Source of the DNA: Candidatus Eremiobacteria bacterium
GTDB taxonomy: Bacteria > Vulcanimicrobiota > Vulcanimicrobiia > Vulcanimicrobiales > Vulcanimicrobiaceae
Direction: 5' to 3'
Length of the DNA: 64,000 nucleotides
Assembly (NCBI GenBank): GCA_963737065.1
Contig: CAVTRC010000001.1
Span: 608,001-672,000, forward strand
In this document: positions 51,231 to 61,050 of the stretch, one piece after another
How positions within the stretch are numbered: the first letter of the stretch is position 1
Layout: every line of letters begins with the position of its first letter
Program-made: the position numbers and the translations under genes
The notes under the pieces: generated by a model
Databases searched by the model: none
What the model was told of the DNA's origin: nothing
The model's input: the letters and a program-made list of their open reading frames with translations, nothing else

Positions 51231-51713
51231 ATGTATTGGTACTGCCGGGCATTTCTTTTGTCTTTTTTTGCAATCGTCGGCACGACGGCGGCGATGGCGG
51301 CCGCACCGAACGTCACGCTGCGGCTCGACGCCGCACTCGTTCACGTCGTAAACGGCAAGGTGACGACATCGGCTGTCGATCGTCCGCTCAAGGCCGGTGA
51401 CGTGATCGAATATCGCATCGTTGCGCGTAATGCCGGCAATGCCTCGGCGTTGGCGTTTTCGCCCCTAGGGAAAGTTCCCGCGCATACCGAGTTTTTGCAA
51501 AATGAAGGCGCGAGTCGCGCGGCGCGCGCTTCATATACGCTCGATGGAACGCATTGGTCGGAACATCCCATGGTCCGTGCAGTGAAATCGTCGGGACACG
51601 TCGTTATGGAACCGGCGCCGCGCTCGCTCTATCGCGCGGTGCGATGGACGCTCTCGGGCGCGCTCGTGCCGTCGCAAACGGCGACGTTCGCGTATGAAGT
51701 GCGCGTGCAATGA
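51231..51713 (+). CDS. Small exported DUF11-like single-domain protein (putative chaperone/cap of a fibre system)
   Basis: Signal peptide; KAGDVIEYRIVARNAG...PLGKVPAHTEF...VRW...TFAYEVRVQ*. Confidence 0.8.
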   Translation: MYWYCRAFLLSFFAIVGTTAAMAAAPNVTLRLDAALVHVVNGKVTTSAVDRPLKAGDVIEYRIVARNAGNASALAFSPLGKVPAHTEFLQNEGASRAARASYTLDGTHWSEHPMVRAVKSSGHVVMEPAPRSLYRAVRWTLSGALVPSQTATFAYEVRVQ

Positions 51714-54187
51714 AACTCCACCGGTCTCTTGCGGCGGCGGGCGCGTTTGCGCTCGCCGTTCAACTCACGTCGCCGCTCACGGTTAATGCCGCGAACGGCC
51801 ACGACGACCCCGGAACGCAGGTGACGAACACCGCGAACGCAGTCTATAAAGACGCCGGCGGAAACTCGTACACCACCACCTCCAATACGGTAACGGTGAC
51901 GGTGCAAAACGCGCCGACTCTAACGAATACGCCGGGCACCGGTTCCCCGTATGCGCCGGGACAGGTCGTAACCGACACGTTCGTGCTCACGAACACCGGT
52001 AACGGCGCGGGCACGTTCCAAGTCTCCGATACGTCATCCGCGCCTACGGCGAGCTCCGATGCGGTGCTCGGCGGAAGCGATGCGGCAGCGGCGACGCTCG
52101 GCAACGGCGCGGCGACGTGCACGACACCCGCCGGCTCGCAATCGGCGCCGTGCAAATACGCGGCGACGGTCGGCGGCACGACATACTATTTCACGAGCCT
52201 CAATGGAACGAGCGACAACAACTCGCTCGACTATTGGCTACTCCACACGAATCCGGCGACCGCCGCAGGTTCGTCGATCACCGTCTCCGTGTACTACGCG
52301 CTCGCGACGAGTGCTTCGACGCCCGCGACGGTAACATCGAGCATCTACGCATCGGTGGCGTATCCTGCCGCAGGCAGTGCGCCTGCTACGACGTCGTCCT
52401 CTGTCAACGCAACGGAGTCGAATACCGTTACCGCGGACGCGCGCCTCGACTTGTACAAGGCGAGCAGTCAGAATCCGGCGACCGGCGACATCACGTACAC
52501 GGTCTCTGCGCACAACGGAGGCGCGTTTGCCGCGAAGGATCTGCAATCGGTGAAAGCGCTGCTCGGCAGTGCGACTGCGGGCGTGCTGATCTCCGACAAG
52601 GTTCCGCAGTTCGGTGGGTCGCCGCTTTCGCTCAGCAATTCGGGCACGGTCACCGTTACGCCGAACGCGACGTATGGATTTGCGACCGGCGCGACGGCCG
52701 ACCTGTATTACTCGACGTCGGCAACCGGTACGACTAGCTGGACGAAAGCGACAGGAAATCTTCCGACGGACGGCAGCGTAACCTACGTTGCAATCTTCAT
52801 TCACGGTGGGACCTGCACGAGCGCCGGATACGAGCTGTGCGCGGACACCGGTCATGCGACGACGCCCGGTAACAGCAACGTTGCCTCCGCTGCGGCGATT
52901 GCGTTCTCGTTCACGGTCGTTCAGCCGAGTGGGCCCGGATCGGCCAACGCGAACGCAGTCAAAAACCTCGCGAACGGTGTCATCGGCGACAACCAGTCGA
53001 CGGAGCACATACTCGGACCGGGCATTCCGGGCGGAACGGCCGATACGCCATCGGCGACGCCCATCACAACGAGCGGTCAAGGCATAAACAACACCACGAA
53101 CACCTCGACGAACGGCGCGTCCAATCAGATCGGAAATCAAGCCCTTGCGTCGTACGCGCCGCAAAACGGTCCGTTCGGACAACCGGCCGCCGTTGGGTCG
53201 TATGACGGCGTCGTCGGATCGAATGGATCCAACGATTTCACAGCGTTTCCTTTCGGTCTCGCGGGCGATAGCGTCGTTAATACGAGTACGACGGTGGGAT
53301 CACCGGTAACCGCGGCAACGCTGGGCTCCGCGCAAACGATCTGCGTCGCGCATACGCTCAAAAACAACGGGAATCACGACGACTCGTTCAACATCGTCGC
53401 CACCGTTCCAACGGCATACCAGGTTCCGTCGACCAGCGGTGGAACTGCGGTCGCCGGCTGGAAGACCGGCGTTTATTCCGATGCGGCGTGCAGCGCCGCG
53501 CTCGGCGGATCGACCGACGGATCGCCGGCGGCGACCGCATCGAACGTTGCGATCGCCTCGGGCAACTCGCTCAACTATTACGTGAAATACGTCATTCCAG
53601 CGGGAGTGAAGTACTTCTACCGCTTTGACGCTTCGATCGTTGCGACCAGTGTCGGCAGCGGTTCGCAAAGCGACTCGACGCACGATGAACTTTACTCGGG
53701 ATTCGTCGCGCTCACGAAATCGCAGAATGTCACGAGCAACGGTTGCCCTTCGGGTGTGTCGCCGTCGTATGCAGCCGGCACCGTCTGTCCGACCGGCGTG
53801 ATCGCCTACACGGTCGACTATCGCAACCTCGTGATGGGCACGAGCAGCACCAACATCTCGTTCAACGCGTGCACGACGCAAGCGGGATCGTTGCAGATAA
53901 CGGATGACGGCACGCTCTCGACATCCAGCTCGACGACCACCGTCGCCAATTGGGCATCGTTTGCATCAATGACGGCCGCTCCGTCGGACTCGAGCGCCTC
54001 GTCGTCGTTCACGTACGCCACCGGCGTTCCCGCGGCCGGCGCAAGCCCGACGTGGAGTGCGGCGGCGACGAAGTTTGTCGACACGGTCGGTGGCTCGTCG
54101 TTCCAACTCGTTCCAAAAAACTACAGCGGTCCGTCGGCAACGCAAGGCAATCAGGGGACGGTGACGTTCTCCATCGCGGTGAAGTAA
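51710..54187 (+). CDS. Large exported Ser/Thr/Gly-rich multi-Ig/DUF11-like protein (putative major fibre subunit)
   Basis: Signal peptide, N-terminal PGTQVTNTANAVYKD...SNTV hairpin, Ig-like repeats (LTNTGN, LKNNGN), C-terminal LTK...YTVDYRN...ITDDG...VTFSIAVK. Confidence 0.8.
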   Translation: MKLHRSLAAAGAFALAVQLTSPLTVNAANGHDDPGTQVTNTANAVYKDAGGNSYTTTSNTVTVTVQNAPTLTNTPGTGSPYAPGQVVTDTFVLTNTGNGAGTFQVSDTSSAPTASSDAVLGGSDAAAATLGNGAATCTTPAGSQSAPCKYAATVGGTTYYFTSLNGTSDNNSLDYWLLHTNPATAAGSSITVSVYYALATSASTPATVTSSIYASVAYPAAGSAPATTSSSVNATESNTVTADARLDLYKASSQNPATGDITYTVSAHNGGAFAAKDLQSVKALLGSATAGVLISDKVPQFGGSPLSLSNSGTVTVTPNATYGFATGATADLYYSTSATGTTSWTKATGNLPTDGSVTYVAIFIHGGTCTSAGYELCADTGHATTPGNSNVASAAAIAFSFTVVQPSGPGSANANAVKNLANGVIGDNQSTEHILGPGIPGGTADTPSATPITTSGQGINNTTNTSTNGASNQIGNQALASYAPQNGPFGQPAAVGSYDGVVGSNGSNDFTAFPFGLAGDSVVNTSTTVGSPVTAATLGSAQTICVAHTLKNNGNHDDSFNIVATVPTAYQVPSTSGGTAVAGWKTGVYSDAACSAALGGSTDGSPAATASNVAIASGNSLNYYVKYVIPAGVKYFYRFDASIVATSVGSGSQSDSTHDELYSGFVALTKSQNVTSNGCPSGVSPSYAAGTVCPTGVIAYTVDYRNLVMGTSSTNISFNACTTQAGSLQITDDGTLSTSSSTTTVANWASFASMTAAPSDSSASSSFTYATGVPAAGASPTWSAAATKFVDTVGGSSFQLVPKNYSGPSATQGNQGTVTFSIAVK

Positions 54188-54191
54188 CGAC

Positions 54192-56297
54192 GTGAACCGC
54201 TTCGGTTGGATCGCGGCGATCGTGCTGTGCGCTCTTGCAGCACAGCACGTCGCCGCGTCCCCGACCGGCGGAACGAGCATCGTGAACGAAGCGTCCGCAA
54301 CGTATAGCGATGTCTTCTCGCACGCCTATCAGACCACTTCCAATGCGATCGTCTCGCAAGTCGTGAGCCTCTCGTCGCTCGTCGTCTCGCCGAAACAAAA
54401 TGCGGCGGCACCGGCGTCGGATACGGTTGCGGTGAACGCATCCGCCACGCGCGTCTTCACGATCACCAACACATCGAACATCACCGACGCGTATCGCATC
54501 ACGAGTCTCCAGACGGGGCCACTCGGCGTTACGTCGATTGCATGGATCACACCGCCGGGATCGCTCGCCACGGCGGTCAACGGGAGTGCATCGCCCCAGA
54601 TCGGGCCCGGTTCATCGATCTCCGTTCGCGTGACGCTTTCTACGAGCGGACTCAACGTCGGCCAGTCGGTTCCGATCGCGCTCACCGCGCAGACGACGGT
54701 GACGCAGACCGGAAACGGTCTCGCGCACGATAGCGGTATGGAATGGGTGATCGGTGCGACGGGCCCGCACTTTTCGGGGCCGGCCGGTGCAAACACCACC
54801 GTCCTGAAGACCGTAAATAATGCGAGGCAGGTACAGACCCAACCGGGCGCAACCGTGACATTTCACATTGCTGCACTCAATAGCGGCGGCGCCGCGGCGA
54901 CGAACGTGCAGATCAGCGATCCGGTACCGGCGGGGTTGCGGGTTGATCTGTCATCGGCAGAGTTGAACGGTCAACCCGCGGGCGCGCAAGCGTCACTGAG
55001 CGGAAACACAATCGTGTTTCGCGTTCCGTCGATCGGCGCCCAGCAAAGCGTCGATGCGACGTTCAACGCGATCCTTCCGCCGGGAGAATCGCTCGGCGAG
55101 TCCTTCGTGAACGTCGCGACGACAGCCGCAGACGGCATTCCCGCAACCGCAACGACTCCCGCCGATGTTTTTTCTGGTTCATCGAACATCGTCTTCGATG
55201 GTTTTGCGGGTGCTGGACATCCGATCGCCGGCGCGGTTATCGCGCTGCTCGATGCGAACGGGAAACCGGTCGGAATCAACGCGCCGAATCCGTCGGTTAC
55301 CGGACCGGACGGCAAGTACGCGCTCCCGCTTTCAGTTCAACTGATTCCCGCAGCGGGCGCGCATTTTACGCTGACGATTTCGGCACCGTCGTATCTAAAC
55401 CGGCGCATCACCCTGGTGATTACGCCCACCGCGAACGGGTTCTACAACGTCTCCGAAACATCGGCTGACGCGCAACCGATCGCGGCGGCCGGCGGCTTCA
55501 CCCTCACGATGAACAACGTTCATCTTCAAGACGTCTTCGGGCTGTTCGGCAACCTGCCGCTCTTCGCGCTCAGAACGATCTCCGTCACGAAGACGTCCGA
55601 CAAACAAGCGGCGTCTGCGGGGGACCGGGTGATCTTCACACTCGGTCTGCAAAATCAAACGACGTTTGGAATCGCGAACGTTCGTGTCGTCGATACGATG
55701 CAAGCCGGATTTGCGTATCTGAACGGAACGGCGAGAGTTGACGGGCTTCCACTCGAACCGCTGGTATCTGGACGCACGCTTTCGTGGGTCTTTTCATCGA
55801 TTGCACCGGCGCAGATGCACACGATCACCTATGGCGCAACGATCGTGCCCGGCGTTGCTGCGGGAAGTACCCTTGCGAACAGCGTTTCGGTGAACGGCAG
55901 CGCGGCGATCGGCGGCGTGAATACCGGCGCTTCCGCAAGTACGAGCGTGATGGTCATCGACGGCGTGCTTTCCATGCGCCGCGTCGTGACCGGTAGAGTA
56001 TTCTTCGACGACGCGCATCGCGGTTATTTCGTGCGCGGCGACCGCGCGATCTCCAGCGTTCGCGTCGTCCTTGAAGACGGTTCGTTCGCGATCACCGATT
56101 CCGGCGGCGCGTTTTCGTTTCCGTCCGTTCGCCCCGGATTGCATGTCGTGCGAATCGATCCGCTGACGTTGCCGGCGTCCGCGCGCGCACAGAGTGATGC
56201 GCCGATGAATTCCAGTCGCTCGTACGAGCAGCTATTGCACGGCGTGCTCGACGACGGAACGATGGAAGACGTCGAATTTGCGGTGGCACCGCGATGA
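54192..56297 (+). CDS. Exported protein with two DUF11 domains and a C-terminal SdrD-B/Cna-B-like domain (putative base/adaptor)
   Basis: GGTSIVNEASATYSD...SNAI; LKTV..PGATVTF...SDPVPAG; VTKTSD..AGDRVIF...VDTM; GRVFFDD...TDSGGAFSF...PG. Confidence 0.8.
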   Translation: MNRFGWIAAIVLCALAAQHVAASPTGGTSIVNEASATYSDVFSHAYQTTSNAIVSQVVSLSSLVVSPKQNAAAPASDTVAVNASATRVFTITNTSNITDAYRITSLQTGPLGVTSIAWITPPGSLATAVNGSASPQIGPGSSISVRVTLSTSGLNVGQSVPIALTAQTTVTQTGNGLAHDSGMEWVIGATGPHFSGPAGANTTVLKTVNNARQVQTQPGATVTFHIAALNSGGAAATNVQISDPVPAGLRVDLSSAELNGQPAGAQASLSGNTIVFRVPSIGAQQSVDATFNAILPPGESLGESFVNVATTAADGIPATATTPADVFSGSSNIVFDGFAGAGHPIAGAVIALLDANGKPVGINAPNPSVTGPDGKYALPLSVQLIPAAGAHFTLTISAPSYLNRRITLVITPTANGFYNVSETSADAQPIAAAGGFTLTMNNVHLQDVFGLFGNLPLFALRTISVTKTSDKQAASAGDRVIFTLGLQNQTTFGIANVRVVDTMQAGFAYLNGTARVDGLPLEPLVSGRTLSWVFSSIAPAQMHTITYGATIVPGVAAGSTLANSVSVNGSAAIGGVNTGASASTSVMVIDGVLSMRRVVTGRVFFDDAHRGYFVRGDRAISSVRVVLEDGSFAITDSGGAFSFPSVRPGLHVVRIDPLTLPASARAQSDAPMNSSRSYEQLLHGVLDDGTMEDVEFAVAPR

Positions 56298-59200
56298 AGC
56301 GGTTGGGAAGAGCGTTGCAGTGTGCGGGCGCCGCGCTTATGGTCGCGTCGTTTATGACGTCGATGACGACCCGCGTTTCCGATGCCGATACGGCGGCCGG
56401 CGCGGCGACGGCAACGTTCGTCGCGCCGAACCCGGGCAGCGCTGCGCCGATCGGCGCAACCAACGTCATCATCTCGACCCAACTCGGCAGTTCGATCGAG
56501 TTGCTCGACGACGGCGAACTCGTCGACGGAAAGCACCTCGGTAAGCGAACGTTCAACAAATCGACCGGCGAGGCGCAATGGTTTTTCTACGGCGTCACAT
56601 TGCACCCGGGACCGAACGAACTCGTCGCGACCGCGCTCCGCGCGCCCGGGTTACGTGGAACGCCGGCGACATTGACCGTCTATGGACCCGGTGACGCGCA
56701 GACAATTCGCGCGGAGTTCGGATCGCATTTACGTGCCGATGGAAAAACGATCGCTCCGCTCAATATTACGGTCAGCGACCGGTACGGCAATGCTGCGGCG
56801 CCCGCGCAACGTGTGGACGTGCGAATTTTGCGCGGAAACGTAACCTTCGGCGATCTGCCGAAAGACGGTACGAACGCCGCACCGGCGTCGCCGGACGTTC
56901 TCACTTCGCCCGCGCCGCAGGGCGCGCTTTCCGCGCAAGTGCCGCTTCCCGTCGGTGGATATCTGTCGCTTCCCGTCGTGTCGGGAACGCTCGCCGGCGC
57001 ATTCGACATCGAGGTACGCGTCGGCAACGCGTATCTTCGGCGTTCGTTCTACGTCGAGCCATACGTTCGCCCCGCATTCGTTACGGGGCTTGCGTCGGTC
57101 GGCGTCGGCGCCGTCCCGGGTGACGTCGACGGCGACGGTATCGAAGACGGCGGCGGAGCGCGCCGCGAGCGCGCAGCGATTTTCGCAACGGGAGCCGTTG
57201 GACGCACGCTCGTGACCGCCGGCTACGAATCGCAAAACCGTCTGTCGCCCGTTTCGTCTCTCGGTGCGCCGGTCGATTCGCCCAATAGCCGTCCGTATTT
57301 GACGTACGGCGACAGCTCGACGATCGCACAGCCGTATCGCTCGCAAGATCACTTCTACGCGCGCGTGGATCGCGGAAGGTCGAGCGCATTGTGGGGGCAG
57401 TACGTTGCGGACGTCGGGCCACCGGACGTGGGCGGATATCAGCAGCTCTTGAACGGCGCGAAGGTCGATGTGTCGCTCGGTGCGAGCGGACGCGCGCGTG
57501 TAACCGCGTTTACCGCGCGCAATCAGCAAGCGTTCATTTCGACGATTCTTCCGTTGACGGGACTCGCCACGCTTTCCGCACCGCTTCACCCCGACATCGT
57601 CGTCGGCTCGGATCTGCTGCAGTTGGTGACGCTCGACCGCGCGACGGGTTTGATGATTCGAGAGACACCACTCTTGCGAAACGTCGACTACACAATCGAT
57701 TACGCGACGGGCATCCTGCGTTTCATCAACGTACCGCTACCGTACGACCCGCAGTTCAATCCGCAAGTCGTCTCGCTGCAATACGAATACCAGGGGCCGG
57801 GCGTCGCATCACAGACGACCGGTGCGCAGGTCAGCTACGCGCTTTCCCTCGACGGCCGCACGACGGCCCGTGCAGGTTACGTCAACGACGCAACCGGAAC
57901 GCAAAATTTCGCGCTCGTCACACAATCGCTAGCGCGGACATGGGCGAACGGATCGTTTACCGTTTCTCATGCTTCCAGCGCCGGGTTCGTTCCGAGCGCC
58001 GGAAGCTCGACGCAACTGGGCGCGGCGACCGTGGTGCCGCATAACGGCGAAGCGATCTCCGTCGCGCTCGATGAACGGAATGCCACGAATGCCGTTGCGC
58101 TCGGATATCAGTCGACTAGCGCGGGTTATAACGATCCGTTCGGTGGATTCAGCTCGCCCGGAACGCGCGCATATCGTGCGATCTATTCACTCGGCACGGC
58201 GCGTGCCGGTCAACTGCAAATGAACCTCTCGGGTGAAAGTAACACCGGCATCGGAGCGGCAAGCAGCGAGCTCGACGGTGCGGTGACGTACCTGCGCGCC
58301 CTCACGTCCCGCTTGACGATGAGCGCGGGCGTTGCCGAGCATCGCCAAACGATCGGGGCGCAGCCGTCGGCGTCTCCCGCTGCGAACGTCGCATTAGCGA
58401 ATACGCAGCAGACGCAGGCGCAGGCATCCCTCACCTACCGCATGCCGGAGCGTCTCGGCATTTCGGTTTCGGAATCCGACACGCTGCGCGGCAGTGATGC
58501 GGGCTCAACGCAACCGTCTCAGACGCAACTCGAAGCGACGTACGACTTGCCAAAGCGCGGCCGTTTGTTCTTCCGCGAACTTTGGAGCGATCAACCGTCG
58601 GCGACGTTTGCGAATTCAACGGCAAATCTCAATATCGCGTCGGGCTCGACCCATTCGATGCAATTCGGGGTCGAACAGCCGCTCTCGGCGGCAACGACGG
58701 TTAGCTCGCAATACGTCATCGATCAAGTCGCGTCGGGCGTGAATATCTATGCCGCGGCAGGCATTGACGAACGCGTGCATCTCGGCAAAGCAATTGCCGG
58801 AAACTTGACGTTGCAATCGGCAAACGCAGTTGGCGCGGGAGCGGAGGGATTCACCGTTCTCGGTGCCGCGCTCACATACGCGCCGGCGAGCGGGAAGTTT
58901 CGCAGTTCGGTTTCGTATCAAGATCGAACGGGCGCGTCGTCCGGATCGACCGTTTCCGCGGCAATCGCAGGTCATATCAGCGACGCTCTCTCAGCGGTGG
59001 GCTTCATTCAACGCGCATACGGCAACGGGATCAACGCGATCGACGATCGGTTGTCGGTTGCGTATCGTCCGCGCGCCGACGATCGCCTCATCTCACTCTT
59101 CGATTACGAGCGAGGCAACGAGACCGGGCTCGCCGGTGAAGCGGCGAACGTCGCCTCGTTCGAAGAGTTGTTTCGCATGACGCAGACCTTTGAACTCGCC

Positions 59201-59527
59201 GGCCGGTTTGCATACAAATTCGACGGCGGCGGCGAGTACGCGGCGCGCACCGTGCTGTGGTTGGGACGCGCAACGCAGCATGTCGGCTCGCGCGGTGATG
59301 TCGCGCTCGAGGCGCGGACGGCCATCGTTCCGGGCGCGACCGGCGCACGCACGACCGCCGTCGCCGCCGAAGCCGGCGAGACCATTGGGCGCACGGCGCG
59401 CGCCGCGGTTGGTTACAACATCGCCGGAAGCGTCGATCCGTCGCTGCTCGGCGTCCCGCAACGCAAAGGCATCTACATAACCTTCACAACGCTGATCGAT
59501 CGTATCTTCGGGTGGGGAAAACCATGA
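56294..59527 (+). CDS. Large exported protein: Ig-like N-terminal domains plus predicted outer-membrane beta-barrel
   Basis: Signal peptide; LHPGPNEL, LRADG Ig/invasin-like motifs; YGDSS; DYTIDYATG.LRF; long run of amphipathic beta-strands ending KGIYITFT. Confidence 0.75.
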   Translation: MKRLGRALQCAGAALMVASFMTSMTTRVSDADTAAGAATATFVAPNPGSAAPIGATNVIISTQLGSSIELLDDGELVDGKHLGKRTFNKSTGEAQWFFYGVTLHPGPNELVATALRAPGLRGTPATLTVYGPGDAQTIRAEFGSHLRADGKTIAPLNITVSDRYGNAAAPAQRVDVRILRGNVTFGDLPKDGTNAAPASPDVLTSPAPQGALSAQVPLPVGGYLSLPVVSGTLAGAFDIEVRVGNAYLRRSFYVEPYVRPAFVTGLASVGVGAVPGDVDGDGIEDGGGARRERAAIFATGAVGRTLVTAGYESQNRLSPVSSLGAPVDSPNSRPYLTYGDSSTIAQPYRSQDHFYARVDRGRSSALWGQYVADVGPPDVGGYQQLLNGAKVDVSLGASGRARVTAFTARNQQAFISTILPLTGLATLSAPLHPDIVVGSDLLQLVTLDRATGLMIRETPLLRNVDYTIDYATGILRFINVPLPYDPQFNPQVVSLQYEYQGPGVASQTTGAQVSYALSLDGRTTARAGYVNDATGTQNFALVTQSLARTWANGSFTVSHASSAGFVPSAGSSTQLGAATVVPHNGEAISVALDERNATNAVALGYQSTSAGYNDPFGGFSSPGTRAYRAIYSLGTARAGQLQMNLSGESNTGIGAASSELDGAVTYLRALTSRLTMSAGVAEHRQTIGAQPSASPAANVALANTQQTQAQASLTYRMPERLGISVSESDTLRGSDAGSTQPSQTQLEATYDLPKRGRLFFRELWSDQPSATFANSTANLNIASGSTHSMQFGVEQPLSAATTVSSQYVIDQVASGVNIYAAAGIDERVHLGKAIAGNLTLQSANAVGAGAEGFTVLGAALTYAPASGKFRSSVSYQDRTGASSGSTVSAAIAGHISDALSAVGFIQRAYGNGINAIDDRLSVAYRPRADDRLISLFDYERGNETGLAGEAANVASFEELFRMTQTFELAGRFAYKFDGGGEYAARTVLWLGRATQHVGSRGDVALEARTAIVPGATGARTTAVAAEAGETIGRTARAAVGYNIAGSVDPSLLGVPQRKGIYITFTTLIDRIFGWGKP

Positions 59528-61050
59528 CGCGGCTATTGATGCGTCTCGTGGTCGCGGCGGCGTTCGCGATCGTGACGTGCGCGTTTGCGAGCGCCTCGAC
59601 GATCATGGTCTTGAGCGACAGCGCGGGCGTCTATTTGATCGATTCCGCGACCGGCAAAGTCGTTCAGTCGTACGGCAACCTCTTCTCCGGAAGCAGCGCG
59701 CAGGACGTCGCTGAAGACCTCAACGGCAACCTGTACGTGACCGATAGCTCCGGCAACCTCCGAAAGGCGACGTTCAACGCGAACGCCGGATCGTCGACCG
59801 GCGCGTATGCCGCGGCGACCGTCGTCGGCGCGATCCCCGGATATACTTCCGCGGTTGCGCGTCTTGCGTGGGATCCCACCACGTTGTATTGCGCGACCGG
59901 CTGCCTCGTGACGATGAACAGCAGCGGAAATTCGCTCGATTGGATCAATCCGGCGACGGCCGCCATCGTAAAAAGCGTCGCGGTGAGTCCGGCCATCTCG
60001 GGTGGCGGCGACCTTGTCATCGACCCCACTGCGGTGAACAACGCGGCCGTCTACGTCGTCTCCGGAAAAGCGTTTTACAGCGTCAATCCGTCGACGGGCG
60101 CGTCGACCTCGATCGCGACGTTTTCGTGGCCGGGGCTCACGGCGAATCTGACGGGACTTGCGCTCCTGGCGAACGGCGATCTGGTTGGATGCGAACAAAA
60201 AGGCAGCGGAACGGCCTGGACGCTTTGGGAATTCACGACCGCCGGAGCGCTCGTCACGAGCCAAACGGGCATTAGCACCGGAAGCGACGTGGTGAACGAC
60301 CTCGCTTCGGTTCCGGCGACGTTCACGACGTCGAAAACCGGCACCGCGAATGCGGGCCTCGGCGACACGATGATTTATACCGTCACATTGAAGAACACGA
60401 GTTACTTCACCGTGCCGACGGCCGCGATGACCGACCCATATCCTTCGACGATCAGCGTTTTATCGTCGCCGGCGCCGTCGTGCAGTGTTTCCGGCGGCGG
60501 CAGTTGCACCGCGACGCTGAACCCGAGCGCAAGCCCTTCGCCCGACGTTGTCGCAAGCGTTACGAACTTGGCCGCCGGCGCAACCGCCACGATGACGTTC
60601 GAAGGTTCACCGAGCGCGAGTGCGAGCGGGACCGTCTCGAACACGGCAAACTCGAGCGTTCCGTTCGATCCCAACGAGTACGGCGGCTCGACCGCTGCAA
60701 CGAACACCATCAACACAACGATCACGGCGTCCGAATTTGCGAAACAGGTAGCAAACATCACGGAGGGCCTTGCGCCGGGCACGAGCTTGATCGGCAAACC
60801 GGGTGATGTCGTGGAATACACCCTGACGTTCACGAACCGCCGCGGCTTTTCGCTGGCGTCCTTTCAAATCAACGACCCGGTGCCGACGGGAACGACGTAC
60901 GTCGCAAACAGCGCAACGTGCATAAGTCAGCCCGCGGGGCTCACCTGCGCGCCGTCGCAGTCAGGCGGCGTCGTGTCGTTTGTTTACACCGGCACGAGCT
61001 TGGCCGCCAACGGCGTCGTCAGCGCAAAGTTCCGCGTAACGATCAACTAA
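59524..61050 (+). CDS. Exported beta-propeller plus two DUF11 domains (putative tip adhesin)
   Basis: Signal peptide; propeller-like repeats (DVAEDLNGNLYV, GDLVIDP, GLALLANGDL, DLAS); SKTG..GDTMIYTV..TDPYP..VSNTA; AKQV..PGDVVEYTL..NDPVP..KFRVTIN*. Confidence 0.8.
   Translation: MTRLLMRLVVAAAFAIVTCAFASASTIMVLSDSAGVYLIDSATGKVVQSYGNLFSGSSAQDVAEDLNGNLYVTDSSGNLRKATFNANAGSSTGAYAAATVVGAIPGYTSAVARLAWDPTTLYCATGCLVTMNSSGNSLDWINPATAAIVKSVAVSPAISGGGDLVIDPTAVNNAAVYVVSGKAFYSVNPSTGASTSIATFSWPGLTANLTGLALLANGDLVGCEQKGSGTAWTLWEFTTAGALVTSQTGISTGSDVVNDLASVPATFTTSKTGTANAGLGDTMIYTVTLKNTSYFTVPTAAMTDPYPSTISVLSSPAPSCSVSGGGSCTATLNPSASPSPDVVASVTNLAAGATATMTFEGSPSASASGTVSNTANSSVPFDPNEYGGSTAATNTINTTITASEFAKQVANITEGLAPGTSLIGKPGDVVEYTLTFTNRRGFSLASFQINDPVPTGTTYVANSATCISQPAGLTCAPSQSGGVVSFVYTGTSLAANGVVSAKFRVTIN

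Follow-up and report, generated by a model that had tools for sequence, protein, structure and literature searches.

A putative donor-only base subunit linking a strand-swapped DUF11/CLIPPER fibre to a large outer-membrane barrel in Candidatus Eremiobacteria

A stretch of 64,000 nucleotides from contig CAVTRC010000001.1 of a Candidatus Eremiobacteria bacterium (assembly GCA_963737065.1; subsequently designated the window) carries an operon of five genes, which are arranged head to tail on the + strand between positions 51231 and 61050; adjacent genes overlap, or are spaced, by 4 to 16 bases. The genes encode proteins of 160, 825, 701, 1077 and 512 amino acids (aa), and the third of them is the subject of this study. 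Its open reading frame (ORF) extends from a GTG codon at 54192 to a TGA codon at 56297 and starts four bases past the stop of the 825-aa gene. We propose that the 701-aa protein, which offers a donor hairpin at its N-terminus and is closed everywhere else, is likely the base subunit of a fibre. The features on which this proposal relies are compiled in Table 1.

Table 1. Features of the five-gene operon; positions refer to the window, residues to the respective protein
Feature	Residues	Positions	Strand	Evidence or remarks
160-aa protein (small first gene)		51231..51713	+	single open DUF11-like domain; no hairpin, no Lys at acceptor position
825-aa putative shaft subunit, gene		51710..54187	+	donor hairpin and open acceptor
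Shaft donor hairpin	34-66 (N40, N59)	51809-51907	+	hairpin profile, E 9.2e-8
Shaft open acceptor	651-825 (K670, D732/D733)	53660-54184	+	acceptor alignment A3
701-aa putative donor-only base/anchor subunit, gene		54192..56297	+	ORF and translation; AF2 model
Signal peptide	1-22	54192..54257	+	hydrophobic N-terminus; modelled helix 4-16, pLDDT under 50 at 13-22
Donor hairpin	26-58	54267..54365	+	Asn32 at 54285-54287 (AAC); invariant Ser50-Asn51, Asn at 54342-54344
Domain 1, Ig-like (DEv-IgG/CnaA-like)	61-195	54372..54776	+	structure match, conservation
Complete CLIPPER/DUF11 domain 1	200-330	54789..55181	+	K206 (54807), D243 (54918), N307 (55110)
Transthyretin/CarboxypepD_reg-like (CnaB-like) domain	333-457	55188..55562	+	Pfam PF13620
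Complete CLIPPER/DUF11 domain 2	461-589	55572..55958	+	K467 (55590), D501 (55692), N563 (55878)
C-terminal SdrD_B/CnaB-like domain, closed, no acceptor	597-701	55980..56294	+	Pfam SdrD_B at 602-665
1077-aa partner/barrel protein, gene		56294..59527	+	signal peptide, two Ig-like domains, very large beta-barrel (model)
512-aa candidate tip protein, gene		59512..61050	+	propeller-like N-terminal part, one complete DUF11, open acceptor
512-aa protein, open acceptor	K411, D455	about 60736-61047	+	DUF11 profile

The 701-aa protein has 58 homologues of ~700 aa with 37-61% identity, its homologues come from Eremiobacterota/Vulcanimicrobiota bins, and the names of its relatives in the databases are restricted to 'SdrD B-like' or 'DUF11 domain-containing'. 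A sequence search of the protein against the chains of the Protein Data Bank (PDB) gave no match. The AlphaFold2 (AF2) model reaches a mean predicted local distance difference test score (pLDDT) of 87.8. Read by eye, the N-terminus appears to be a plain signal peptide cleaved after VAA, and no lipobox was seen in it.

Two of the closed domains belong to the DUF11 family. TIGR04226, the model of an isopeptide-forming fimbrial domain, matches at residues 202-310 (E 9.5e-13), TIGR01451 matches the protein with 57.4 bits against a cut-off of 24, and Pfam DUF11 (PF01345) is found in two stretches, one of which covers residues 463-570 (62.5 bits, cut-off 24.6). When both domains are aligned with each other by hhalign, Lys falls on Lys, Asp on Asp and Asn on Asn at a probability of 99.3%. 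The isopeptide triad Lys715-Asp748-Asn806 of a DUF11 domain has been solved in structure 9IFR, in a paper that renamed the domain 'CLIPPER' and describes DUF11 proteins as very common stalks of fibrillar adhesins (PMC12617251). Our family profile matches 9IFR with E 1.1e-4 and places K467, D501 and N563 on the Lys of the first strand, the Asp in the middle and the Asn of the penultimate strand in that structure, and the modelled residues 461-589 superimpose on it with Z 14.2 and a root-mean-square deviation (rmsd) of 2.3 A over 116 of 123 residues. Among 28 homologues N307 is invariant, and each of the remaining five triad residues is kept in at least 90%. Judged by sequence and model, the 701-aa protein carries two complete DUF11/CLIPPER domains of the isopeptide type, the bond itself being a prediction.

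The other domains likewise resemble parts of adhesins and pilins. Residues 61-328 of the model resemble the tandem C-terminal domains of antigen I/II adhesins (Z 13.3-13.5). The CarboxypepD_reg-like domain between the two CLIPPER domains scores under the cut-off of PF13620 in the 701-aa protein (E 2.6e-4) but over it in relatives in which the protein is fused to the barrel (see below). The same holds for the C-terminal domain: SdrD_B reaches 21.1 bits here, the cut-off being 29.7, but 54.3 and 50.9 bits at the same place in fused relatives. Invariant residues of this domain are G601, R602, V603, D606, H683 and G684. Residues 461-701 resemble the middle and C-terminal domains of Gram-positive pilins (EbpB, Z 15.1), and residues 331-701 resemble the three-domain pilins BcpA, SpaD and RrgB (Z 12.6-14.0). 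The initial annotation had named both triads, K206/D243/N307 and K467/D501/N563, as well as the SdrD-B-like end of the protein. All six triad residues are indeed present and lie within DUF11 matches, and the C-terminal assignment, albeit weak in this protein, is borne out by the fused relatives and by the match to pilin C-termini. Of note, domain 1 has a lysine, K68, in a 'VSPK(E/Q)' motif that is kept in most homologues, and N93, N96 and A100 are invariant in 'ITNTSNITDAY'. The own F strand of domain 1 offers no obvious Asn partner for K68, and domain 1 of the shaft protein has no Lys.

Between the signal peptide and domain 1 lies the donor hairpin, whose strands are modelled at residues 29-39 and 45-56 with pLDDT ~84 in the AF2 monomer. 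It had been noted that the string at residues 26-57, with Asn32 at nucleotide 54285, aligns without gaps to a hairpin at the N-terminus of the 825-aa protein. BLASTP reproduces this alignment: residues 27-110 of the 701-aa protein pair with residues 35-112 of the 825-aa protein, and the first 54 columns, which include the hairpin, are gapless. We then used a profile of the hairpin (residues 24-62), derived from 27 homologues with the window's own protein left out, and searched 29,779 six-frame segments of at least 60 aa, which represent the 3.08-Mb genome of this Eremiobacterota bacterium (95.33% complete). The 701-aa protein was detected with E 3.3e-11 and the 825-aa protein with E 9.2e-8, followed by a third-best segment with E 0.74. 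Both significant matches begin a few residues past the signal peptide. As far as sequence can tell, chance is excluded as the source of the similarity between the two hairpins.

For comparison across genomes we used 80 related loci (L numbers), which were searched by tblastn with the five window proteins as queries; relatives of the 825-aa, 701-aa and 1077-aa proteins are subsequently called shaft, anchor and barrel. In most loci a hairpin profile that includes the window's own protein finds the N-terminus of both shaft and anchor. What this hairpin is derived from is indicated by its alignment to the protein's own DUF11 domains, in which hhalign pairs N32 with N307 at P 0.016 and with N563 at P 0.018, as compared to P 0.59 for a control alignment to domain 1. 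After iteration the hairpin profile also picks out F-G hairpins that follow immediately on the E strand within complete internal DUF11 domains. A Pfam scan of the hairpin alone gave no match. Based on the profile-profile alignments, the truncated last domains of neighbouring proteins and the read-through in locus L034 (both described below), the hairpin is, at sequence level, the final strand pair F-G of a DUF11 domain, detached from the rest. Completion of domain 1 of the same chain by the hairpin was considered and rejected, as the matches to that domain begin at residue 61. It is further disfavoured by the junction between hairpin and domain 1, which to the eye reads like a junction of tandem DUF11 domains.

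The putative counterpart of the hairpin is found at the C-termini of its neighbours. In the 512-aa protein, the match of the last domain to the DUF11 profile covers positions 15-84 of 114, and the best stretch ends 16 residues before the C-terminus; by our reading of the sequence this protein stops after the E strand with no hairpin behind. Shaft acceptors of three proteobacterial or acidobacterial loci likewise match at positions 14-84 (L037), 7-84 (L066) and 12-84 (L074) and then end. The shaft acceptor of L040 stops earlier (positions 16-77). Altogether, the match stops at position 84 of 114 in 4/6 acceptor pieces scanned. The acceptor of the window's own shaft protein aligns with those of other shafts; the Lys, K670 in the window, is kept in at least 90% of 29 shaft acceptors, and the window's chain shares the ending '...TFxVxVK' of the others. 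The acidic residue is D732/D733 in the window and part of 'SDATP' in Proteobacteria. An iterated acceptor profile was dropped, since it drifted towards DUF11 domains in general and was too noisy at the Lys column for counting.

The 160-aa protein matches DUF11 profile positions 4-65 only, and its relatives in the loci (n = 55) all end after the E strand. At the acceptor position, which by manual count precedes the G of the AGD motif by 20 residues, a Leu replaces the Lys, and one proteobacterial relative, counted alike, has Gln there. From its sequence, the 160-aa protein could be a periplasmic chaperone or a non-covalent cap that binds donor hairpins reversibly. The N-terminal half of the 512-aa protein is propeller-like, with a weak match to DUF5074, and the protein is a candidate tip adhesin.

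Within the operon, the 825-aa protein has both a donor hairpin and an open acceptor, the 701-aa protein has the donor only, and the 160-aa and 512-aa proteins have the acceptor only, i.e. there are two donors and three acceptors. The view of the initial annotation that the 701-aa protein is donor-only agrees with this count: all of its domains are closed, and what the shaft, the candidate tip and the small first protein lack is exactly the hairpin. With all domains of its own chain closed, the hairpin of the 701-aa protein finds no acceptor in cis. Donor and acceptor were seen on separate proteins in the three Geobacteraceae loci L038, L051 and L076: the anchor alone carries a hairpin, and a single other protein has the open acceptor. 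This separation of donor and acceptor, together with the closed domains of the 701-aa protein, implies that complementation, if any, occurs in trans. The shaft has hairpin and acceptor, so that head-to-tail polymers are possible, which a protein with one of the two could not form. How a hairpin could fit an acceptor is illustrated by locus L034, in which a 3173-codon open frame (L034:2994-12512) runs through shaft, anchor and barrel with neither a stop nor a second signal peptide in between. Across the junction, shaft acceptor and anchor hairpin together match positions 10-114 of the 114 in the DUF11 profile, and the junction sequence 'PVAAGSTVSN' repeats 'PGVAAGSTLAN', the E-F loop of DUF11 domain 2 in the 701-aa protein.

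A second line of evidence ties the 701-aa protein to the product of the following gene. Both genes overlap by the sequence ATGA at 56294-56297, as the initial annotation had stated, and a relative of the 1077-aa protein is encoded directly downstream in nearly all of the 80 loci according to tblastn. Fusions of the two proteins had also been foreseen, and they exist in abundance. Scoring a locus by script as fused when anchor and barrel matches share one stop-free frame, we counted 42 fused, 31 split, 6 incomplete and 1 unresolved locus. Full-length relatives of the 701-aa protein are found in 30 of the 31 split loci, the remaining one being L057; 28 of these 30 are labelled Eremiobacterota/Vulcanimicrobiota, and the other two carry the labels Verrucomicrobiia (L009) and Rhodospirillales (L023). 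The fused proteins measure ~1700-2400 aa and occur in Pseudomonadota, Nitrospirota, Verrucomicrobiota, Acidobacteriota, Desulfobacterota and others. Their order is that of the window: hairpin, DUF11, CarboxypepD_reg, DUF11, SdrD_B and finally ~1000 residues for which no Pfam model exists. Since the fused form prevails outside Eremiobacterota, the arrangement in the window results, from sequence comparison, from a cut that is specific to this lineage and divided one ancestral protein just behind the SdrD_B-like domain. The barrel half has a signal-peptide-like start of its own.

The barrel family is large. With its profile, 1.84 billion proteins yield 6,456 representatives (50% identity) at E values no higher than 0.001; stricter limits of 1e-10 and 1e-30 leave 4,614 and 3,000, respectively. 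Among the best 150 of the 6,456 representatives, 112 have at least 1500 aa and count as fusions of ~2000 aa, 7 have 1250-1499 aa and 31 have less than 1250 aa; within these 150 the iterated profile detects an N-terminal hairpin in 75/112 long proteins and in 0/31 short ones. Polaromonas, Ramlibacter, Citrifermentans and Geomonas are cultivable genera that carry the family. The three Geobacteraceae loci (L038:6090-13352, L051:6384-13976 and L076:5438-13034) represent a minimal form consisting of one acceptor-only protein and an anchor-barrel fusion. Within the phylum, some matches sit in long frames of 1823-3006 aa. Three of them (G036:C1:103969-104682, G144:C1:875214-875921 and G118:C33:167969-168685) are located in frames of 3006, 2142 and 2773 aa, respectively, of which only the last DUF11 and SdrD_B were matched. 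The long frame of G118 stands beside a split copy, i.e. fused and split forms coexist in the phylum.

The AF2 model of the 1077-aa protein has a mean pLDDT of 74.0 and a predicted template modelling score (pTM) of 0.63. It comprises two Ig-like domains at ~41-255, followed by ~38-40 strands of 8-16 residues between residues 262 and 1068, as counted from the DSSP line of the model. Foldseek matches the barrel to LptD, MtrB and SprA. By VIA-align, the best matches are FimD (Z 15.4, rmsd 13.0 A, 396 residues), Deinococcus SlpA (Z 14.9, 14.6 and 14.0), MtrB (Z 14.2, rmsd 6.1 A, 387 residues), FimD in the FimI-bound pilus complex (Z 13.6, rmsd 7.0 A, 322 residues) and PapC (Z 12.0, rmsd 6.6 A, 305 residues). 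The top matches are tied within ~2 Z, and they therefore support the class of large outer-membrane barrels but not membership in the usher family. A sequence profile of the barrel matches a porin fragment (E 1.2e-4), and two fused relatives, one of them the Geobacteraceae protein of L038, carry in addition an OmpA peptidoglycan-binding domain at the C-terminus (72.6 and 72.9 bits). In the ESM Atlas the barrel falls into unnamed clusters, plus one cluster called 'outer membrane protein' and one called 'OmpA family'. Pfam gave no match of any family for the barrel part, neither in the window nor in the fused relatives, and a crude score of strand alternation was uninformative. A classical type Va autotransporter has a C-terminal barrel of 12 strands; no autotransporter barrel is among the structural matches listed for the 1077-aa model. 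Taken together, the modelling supports that the 1077-aa protein is a large outer-membrane beta-barrel, in line with what had been predicted for the downstream gene. Should all ~38-40 modelled strands belong to the same barrel, it would rank with the largest barrels made of a single chain.

The reading best supported among those considered is that of the initial annotation. We think it likely that the 701-aa protein is a donor-only, cell-proximal base subunit, analogous to PapH/FimI or Mfa2, which links a strand-swapped and probably isopeptide-locked fibre to the barrel. According to this model, each fibre subunit would end in a DUF11/CLIPPER domain that lacks the last two strands, and this open acceptor would hold the Lys and the acidic residue. 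The missing strands would be supplied in trans by the N-terminal hairpin of the next subunit, which contributes the Asn; insertion of the hairpin would complete the fold, and a Lys-Asn isopeptide bond would probably form spontaneously and lock it. Subunits would be exported by Sec and may pass through the barrel, folded or unfolded, the acceptor-only tip going first. The open acceptor at the base of the growing fibre would then receive the hairpin of each new shaft subunit, and this subunit would become locked in turn. As the 701-aa protein has the hairpin alone, it would end the chain at the acceptor end. Its hairpin, or the barrel's own arm in the fused forms, would compete with shaft hairpins for the acceptor at the base; once an anchor hairpin wins, growth would end, the fibre would be fixed to the barrel and nothing further could be added. 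A stalk of closed, internally cross-linked Ig-like domains would run from there to the 1077-aa outer-membrane barrel. The polarity would be that of chaperone-usher pili, in which FimI or PapH plays the part of the terminator.

Several observations count against this interpretation. BLASTP between the 701-aa and 825-aa proteins reaches only E 0.083, so that this comparison alone cannot exclude chance, and the P values of the hairpin in hhalign (~0.02) are modest. The window's own shaft acceptor has diverged and has no Pfam match; its alignments to the CLIPPER domains of the 701-aa protein are local, covering 15-26 columns (P 4.5e-4 and 6.5e-4). L034 is a metagenome bin, and its read-through could be an assembly error rather than a triple fusion, though the sequence match across the junction is independent of that question. 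The system is also patchy in its phylum, where 27/151 genomes match.

Further points of this kind concern the covalent lock. Asn51 is more conserved than Asn32 (28/28 homologues and 125/128 hairpin matches in the loci, as compared to 122/128 for Asn32) and has no equivalent in the cis domains. Other residues stand at the place of Asn32 in four hairpins: Ala in the L035 anchor, Ser in the L059 anchor and the L073 shaft, and Val in P0032. The L029 shaft has Thr in place of the acceptor Lys while its hairpins keep Asn; hence, the bond cannot be universal. The Geobacteraceae loci L038, L051 and L076 have His for Asn32 and keep the Ser-Asn of the second strand, and at the position of the acceptor Lys they have Asp, Glu and Glu, respectively, when aligned by eye without gaps from the PGD motif to K411 of the 512-aa protein. 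This double change favours Asn32 over Asn51 as the partner of the Lys, albeit in one clade and by an alignment made by eye. In Geobacteraceae the link between hairpin and acceptor may, by these residues, be non-covalent. Elsewhere a Lys-Asn isopeptide lock of the hairpin in the acceptor is probable: the acceptor Lys and Asn32 are conserved, a Lys-Asp-Asn bond has been solved in DUF11, and both partners are lost together in Geobacteraceae, which makes the covalent chemistry plausible.

Three other explanations were weighed against the base-subunit model. The hairpin could dock as proposed, with the 701-aa protein serving as an adaptor that holds a single tip, i.e. the 512-aa or the 160-aa protein, on the barrel; the 825-aa protein would be alternative cargo and no long fibre would arise. 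The Geobacteraceae loci, with only an anchor and one acceptor-only protein, demonstrate that a two-piece, non-polymeric form exists, and nothing in our data indicates the length of a polymer. We nevertheless consider this unlikely, as the 825-aa protein and its relatives carry hairpin and acceptor, which allows for head-to-tail polymers, and as the order 160-aa gene, shaft, anchor, barrel recurs over loci and phyla.

It is also conceivable that the 701-aa protein and the barrel are an adhesin complete in itself, akin to a split autotransporter whose Ig-like stalk is presented on its own barrel, and that the hairpin motif donates no strands but is a signal for export or targeting that the barrel recognises, comparable to the domain of two-partner secretion (TPS) proteins. 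The neighbouring proteins would then be separate cargo or adhesins. This would agree with the passenger-then-barrel order of the fused forms, with a motif that stands at the very start of two mature exported proteins, and with a hairpin that is modelled at pLDDT ~84 in the monomer without a partner; moreover, docking into the acceptors is a proposal drawn from sequence. But such an adhesin leaves unexplained why the motif aligns with DUF11 F-G strands with the isopeptide Asn in register, why three neighbours end at position 84 of 114 of the DUF11 profile, and why in L034 the profile is filled once the hairpin follows the acceptor. A role in export is likewise difficult to reconcile with the 512-aa and 160-aa proteins, which need export too, yet have no such motif. 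We regard this explanation as about as unlikely as the adaptor. Least probable of all is that the 701-aa protein is a generic DUF11 stalk protein, its N-terminus a decayed DUF11 repeat and its fusions a reflection of shared localisation only: such stalks are described as very common in fibrillar adhesins (PMC12617251) and the relatives are named merely DUF11 or SdrD B-like, but a decayed remnant would neither hold Ser50-Asn51 invariant in 28/28 homologues, nor turn up in several phyla at the N-terminus of two protein families, nor be paired with acceptors cut at one profile position.

The base-subunit model invites comparison with known fibres. In chaperone-usher pili, PapH or FimI is the last subunit at the base, inserts its N-terminal extension into the groove of the preceding subunit and stays at the outer-membrane barrel; FimI has been described as the anchor to FimD (PMC12122975). 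The role proposed here would be alike, and the 1077-aa barrel recalls the ushers in that the pores of FimD and PapC are among its best structural matches. However, the 701-aa protein has no sequence relation to PapH or FimI, in place of one strand the donor comprises a hairpin of two, which stems from a split isopeptide domain, the link is probably covalent, and the terminator is usually fused to the barrel. The barrel itself is modelled with ~38-40 strands as compared to 24 in ushers (PMC13721041). No match to the usher family PF00577 was found in the 95.33%-complete genome. Pfam assigned only DUF11-type families to the operon proteins and thus no PapD-like chaperone, for which no dedicated search was made.

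Mfa2 and FimB of type V pili in Bacteroidota are outer-membrane lipoproteins, and assembly of these pili needs proteolytic removal of a strand. They provide a further example of a dedicated basal subunit that acts as anchor and as terminator of elongation (PMC8512630). In contrast, the 701-aa protein has a plain signal peptide with no lipobox seen, and an integral barrel, separate or fused. The principle of an N-terminal segment that completes the beta-sheet of a neighbour and is locked by an intermolecular isopeptide bond has been described for Sulfolobus threads and for BsaA of C. perfringens (PMC9715654; 10.1101/2022.04.26.489512; 10.1101/2024.11.04.621531). Those subunits are single-domain or TasA-like and reside on archaea or monoderms, which have no outer membrane, whereas here a CnaA-like DUF11/CLIPPER fold would be complemented by a hairpin, with a donor-only base and an outer-membrane barrel. 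By sequence and fold, the 701-aa protein is outside the PapH/FimI, Mfa2/FimB, thread and BsaA families.

With sortase-assembled pilins such as EbpB, BcpA, SpaD and RrgB the protein shares, in residues 331-701, a string of CnaB-, CnaA- and CnaB-like domains with internal Lys-Asn triads. Its C-terminus, ...EFAVAPR, is devoid of an LPXTG motif, no match to the sortase family PF04203 was found in the genome, and subunits would be joined by strand donation, not by a sortase-made bond between Lys and the C-terminus. SpyTag/SpyCatcher is an engineered split of a CnaB2 domain, in which tag and truncated domain reconstitute and form a Lys-Asp bond spontaneously. The arrangement in the operon would be alike in that the isopeptide domain comes in two pieces, a short tag with one reactive residue and a truncated domain with the other two, but the split would be natural, of CnaA-like type, based on Lys-Asn and in the service of polymerisation. 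Two further candidates were rejected as related systems: the DUF11 'grappling hook' of Litorilinea is one giant chain and no such polymer, and 'tafi' shares only the start of a name, DUF1102 as opposed to DUF11.

The remaining features of the locus and its genome can be summarized briefly. According to Pfam, the genes that flank the operon are of the housekeeping type (Der, PlsY, TauE). An Omp85/BamA gene is present in the genome, from which we conclude that the cell is diderm. A scan for promoters and terminators yielded no more than shuffled sequence does. The gene order 160-aa protein, shaft, anchor, barrel recurs over the sampled loci, and in some of them a relative of the 512-aa protein or another acceptor-bearing protein follows downstream of the barrel. 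In several Eremiobacterota loci the position of the 512-aa gene is taken by an ORF that resembles the C-terminal half of the shaft. The two loci labelled Verrucomicrobiia and Rhodospirillales, L009 and L023, carry the complete operon with full-length copies of the Eremiobacterota type, and the labels could be due to mis-binning or to transfer.

No published description of a fibre with DUF11 hairpin swapping, or of this barrel family, was found in openly available full text; the first 300,000 characters of a 2026 review on bacterial surfaces contain neither 'DUF11' nor 'CLIPPER'. What we describe is a known principle in a new form and within a large uncharacterised family. More tentatively, the system might represent an undescribed and very widespread class of diderm fibre anchored in the outer membrane, in which split CLIPPER domains are complemented in trans, as in a natural tag/catcher pair, and the chain is ended by the N-terminal arm of the barrel, which is split off in the window. 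The pair of this arm and the barrel of ~38-40 strands could then be viewed as a self-terminating usher.

If the base-subunit model is true, diderm bacteria have a covalent, sortase-free way of fibre assembly that is unrelated in sequence to chaperone-usher, type IV and type V pili and to curli. Cultivable genera carry the barrel family, and the model is therefore testable at the bench. It would also mean that nature holds a family of orthogonal hairpin/acceptor pairs for covalent protein ligation. Moreover, it would explain why the last domain appears truncated in thousands of DUF11 proteins, and it would give a role to a large family of ~1000-residue barrels for which there is no Pfam model.

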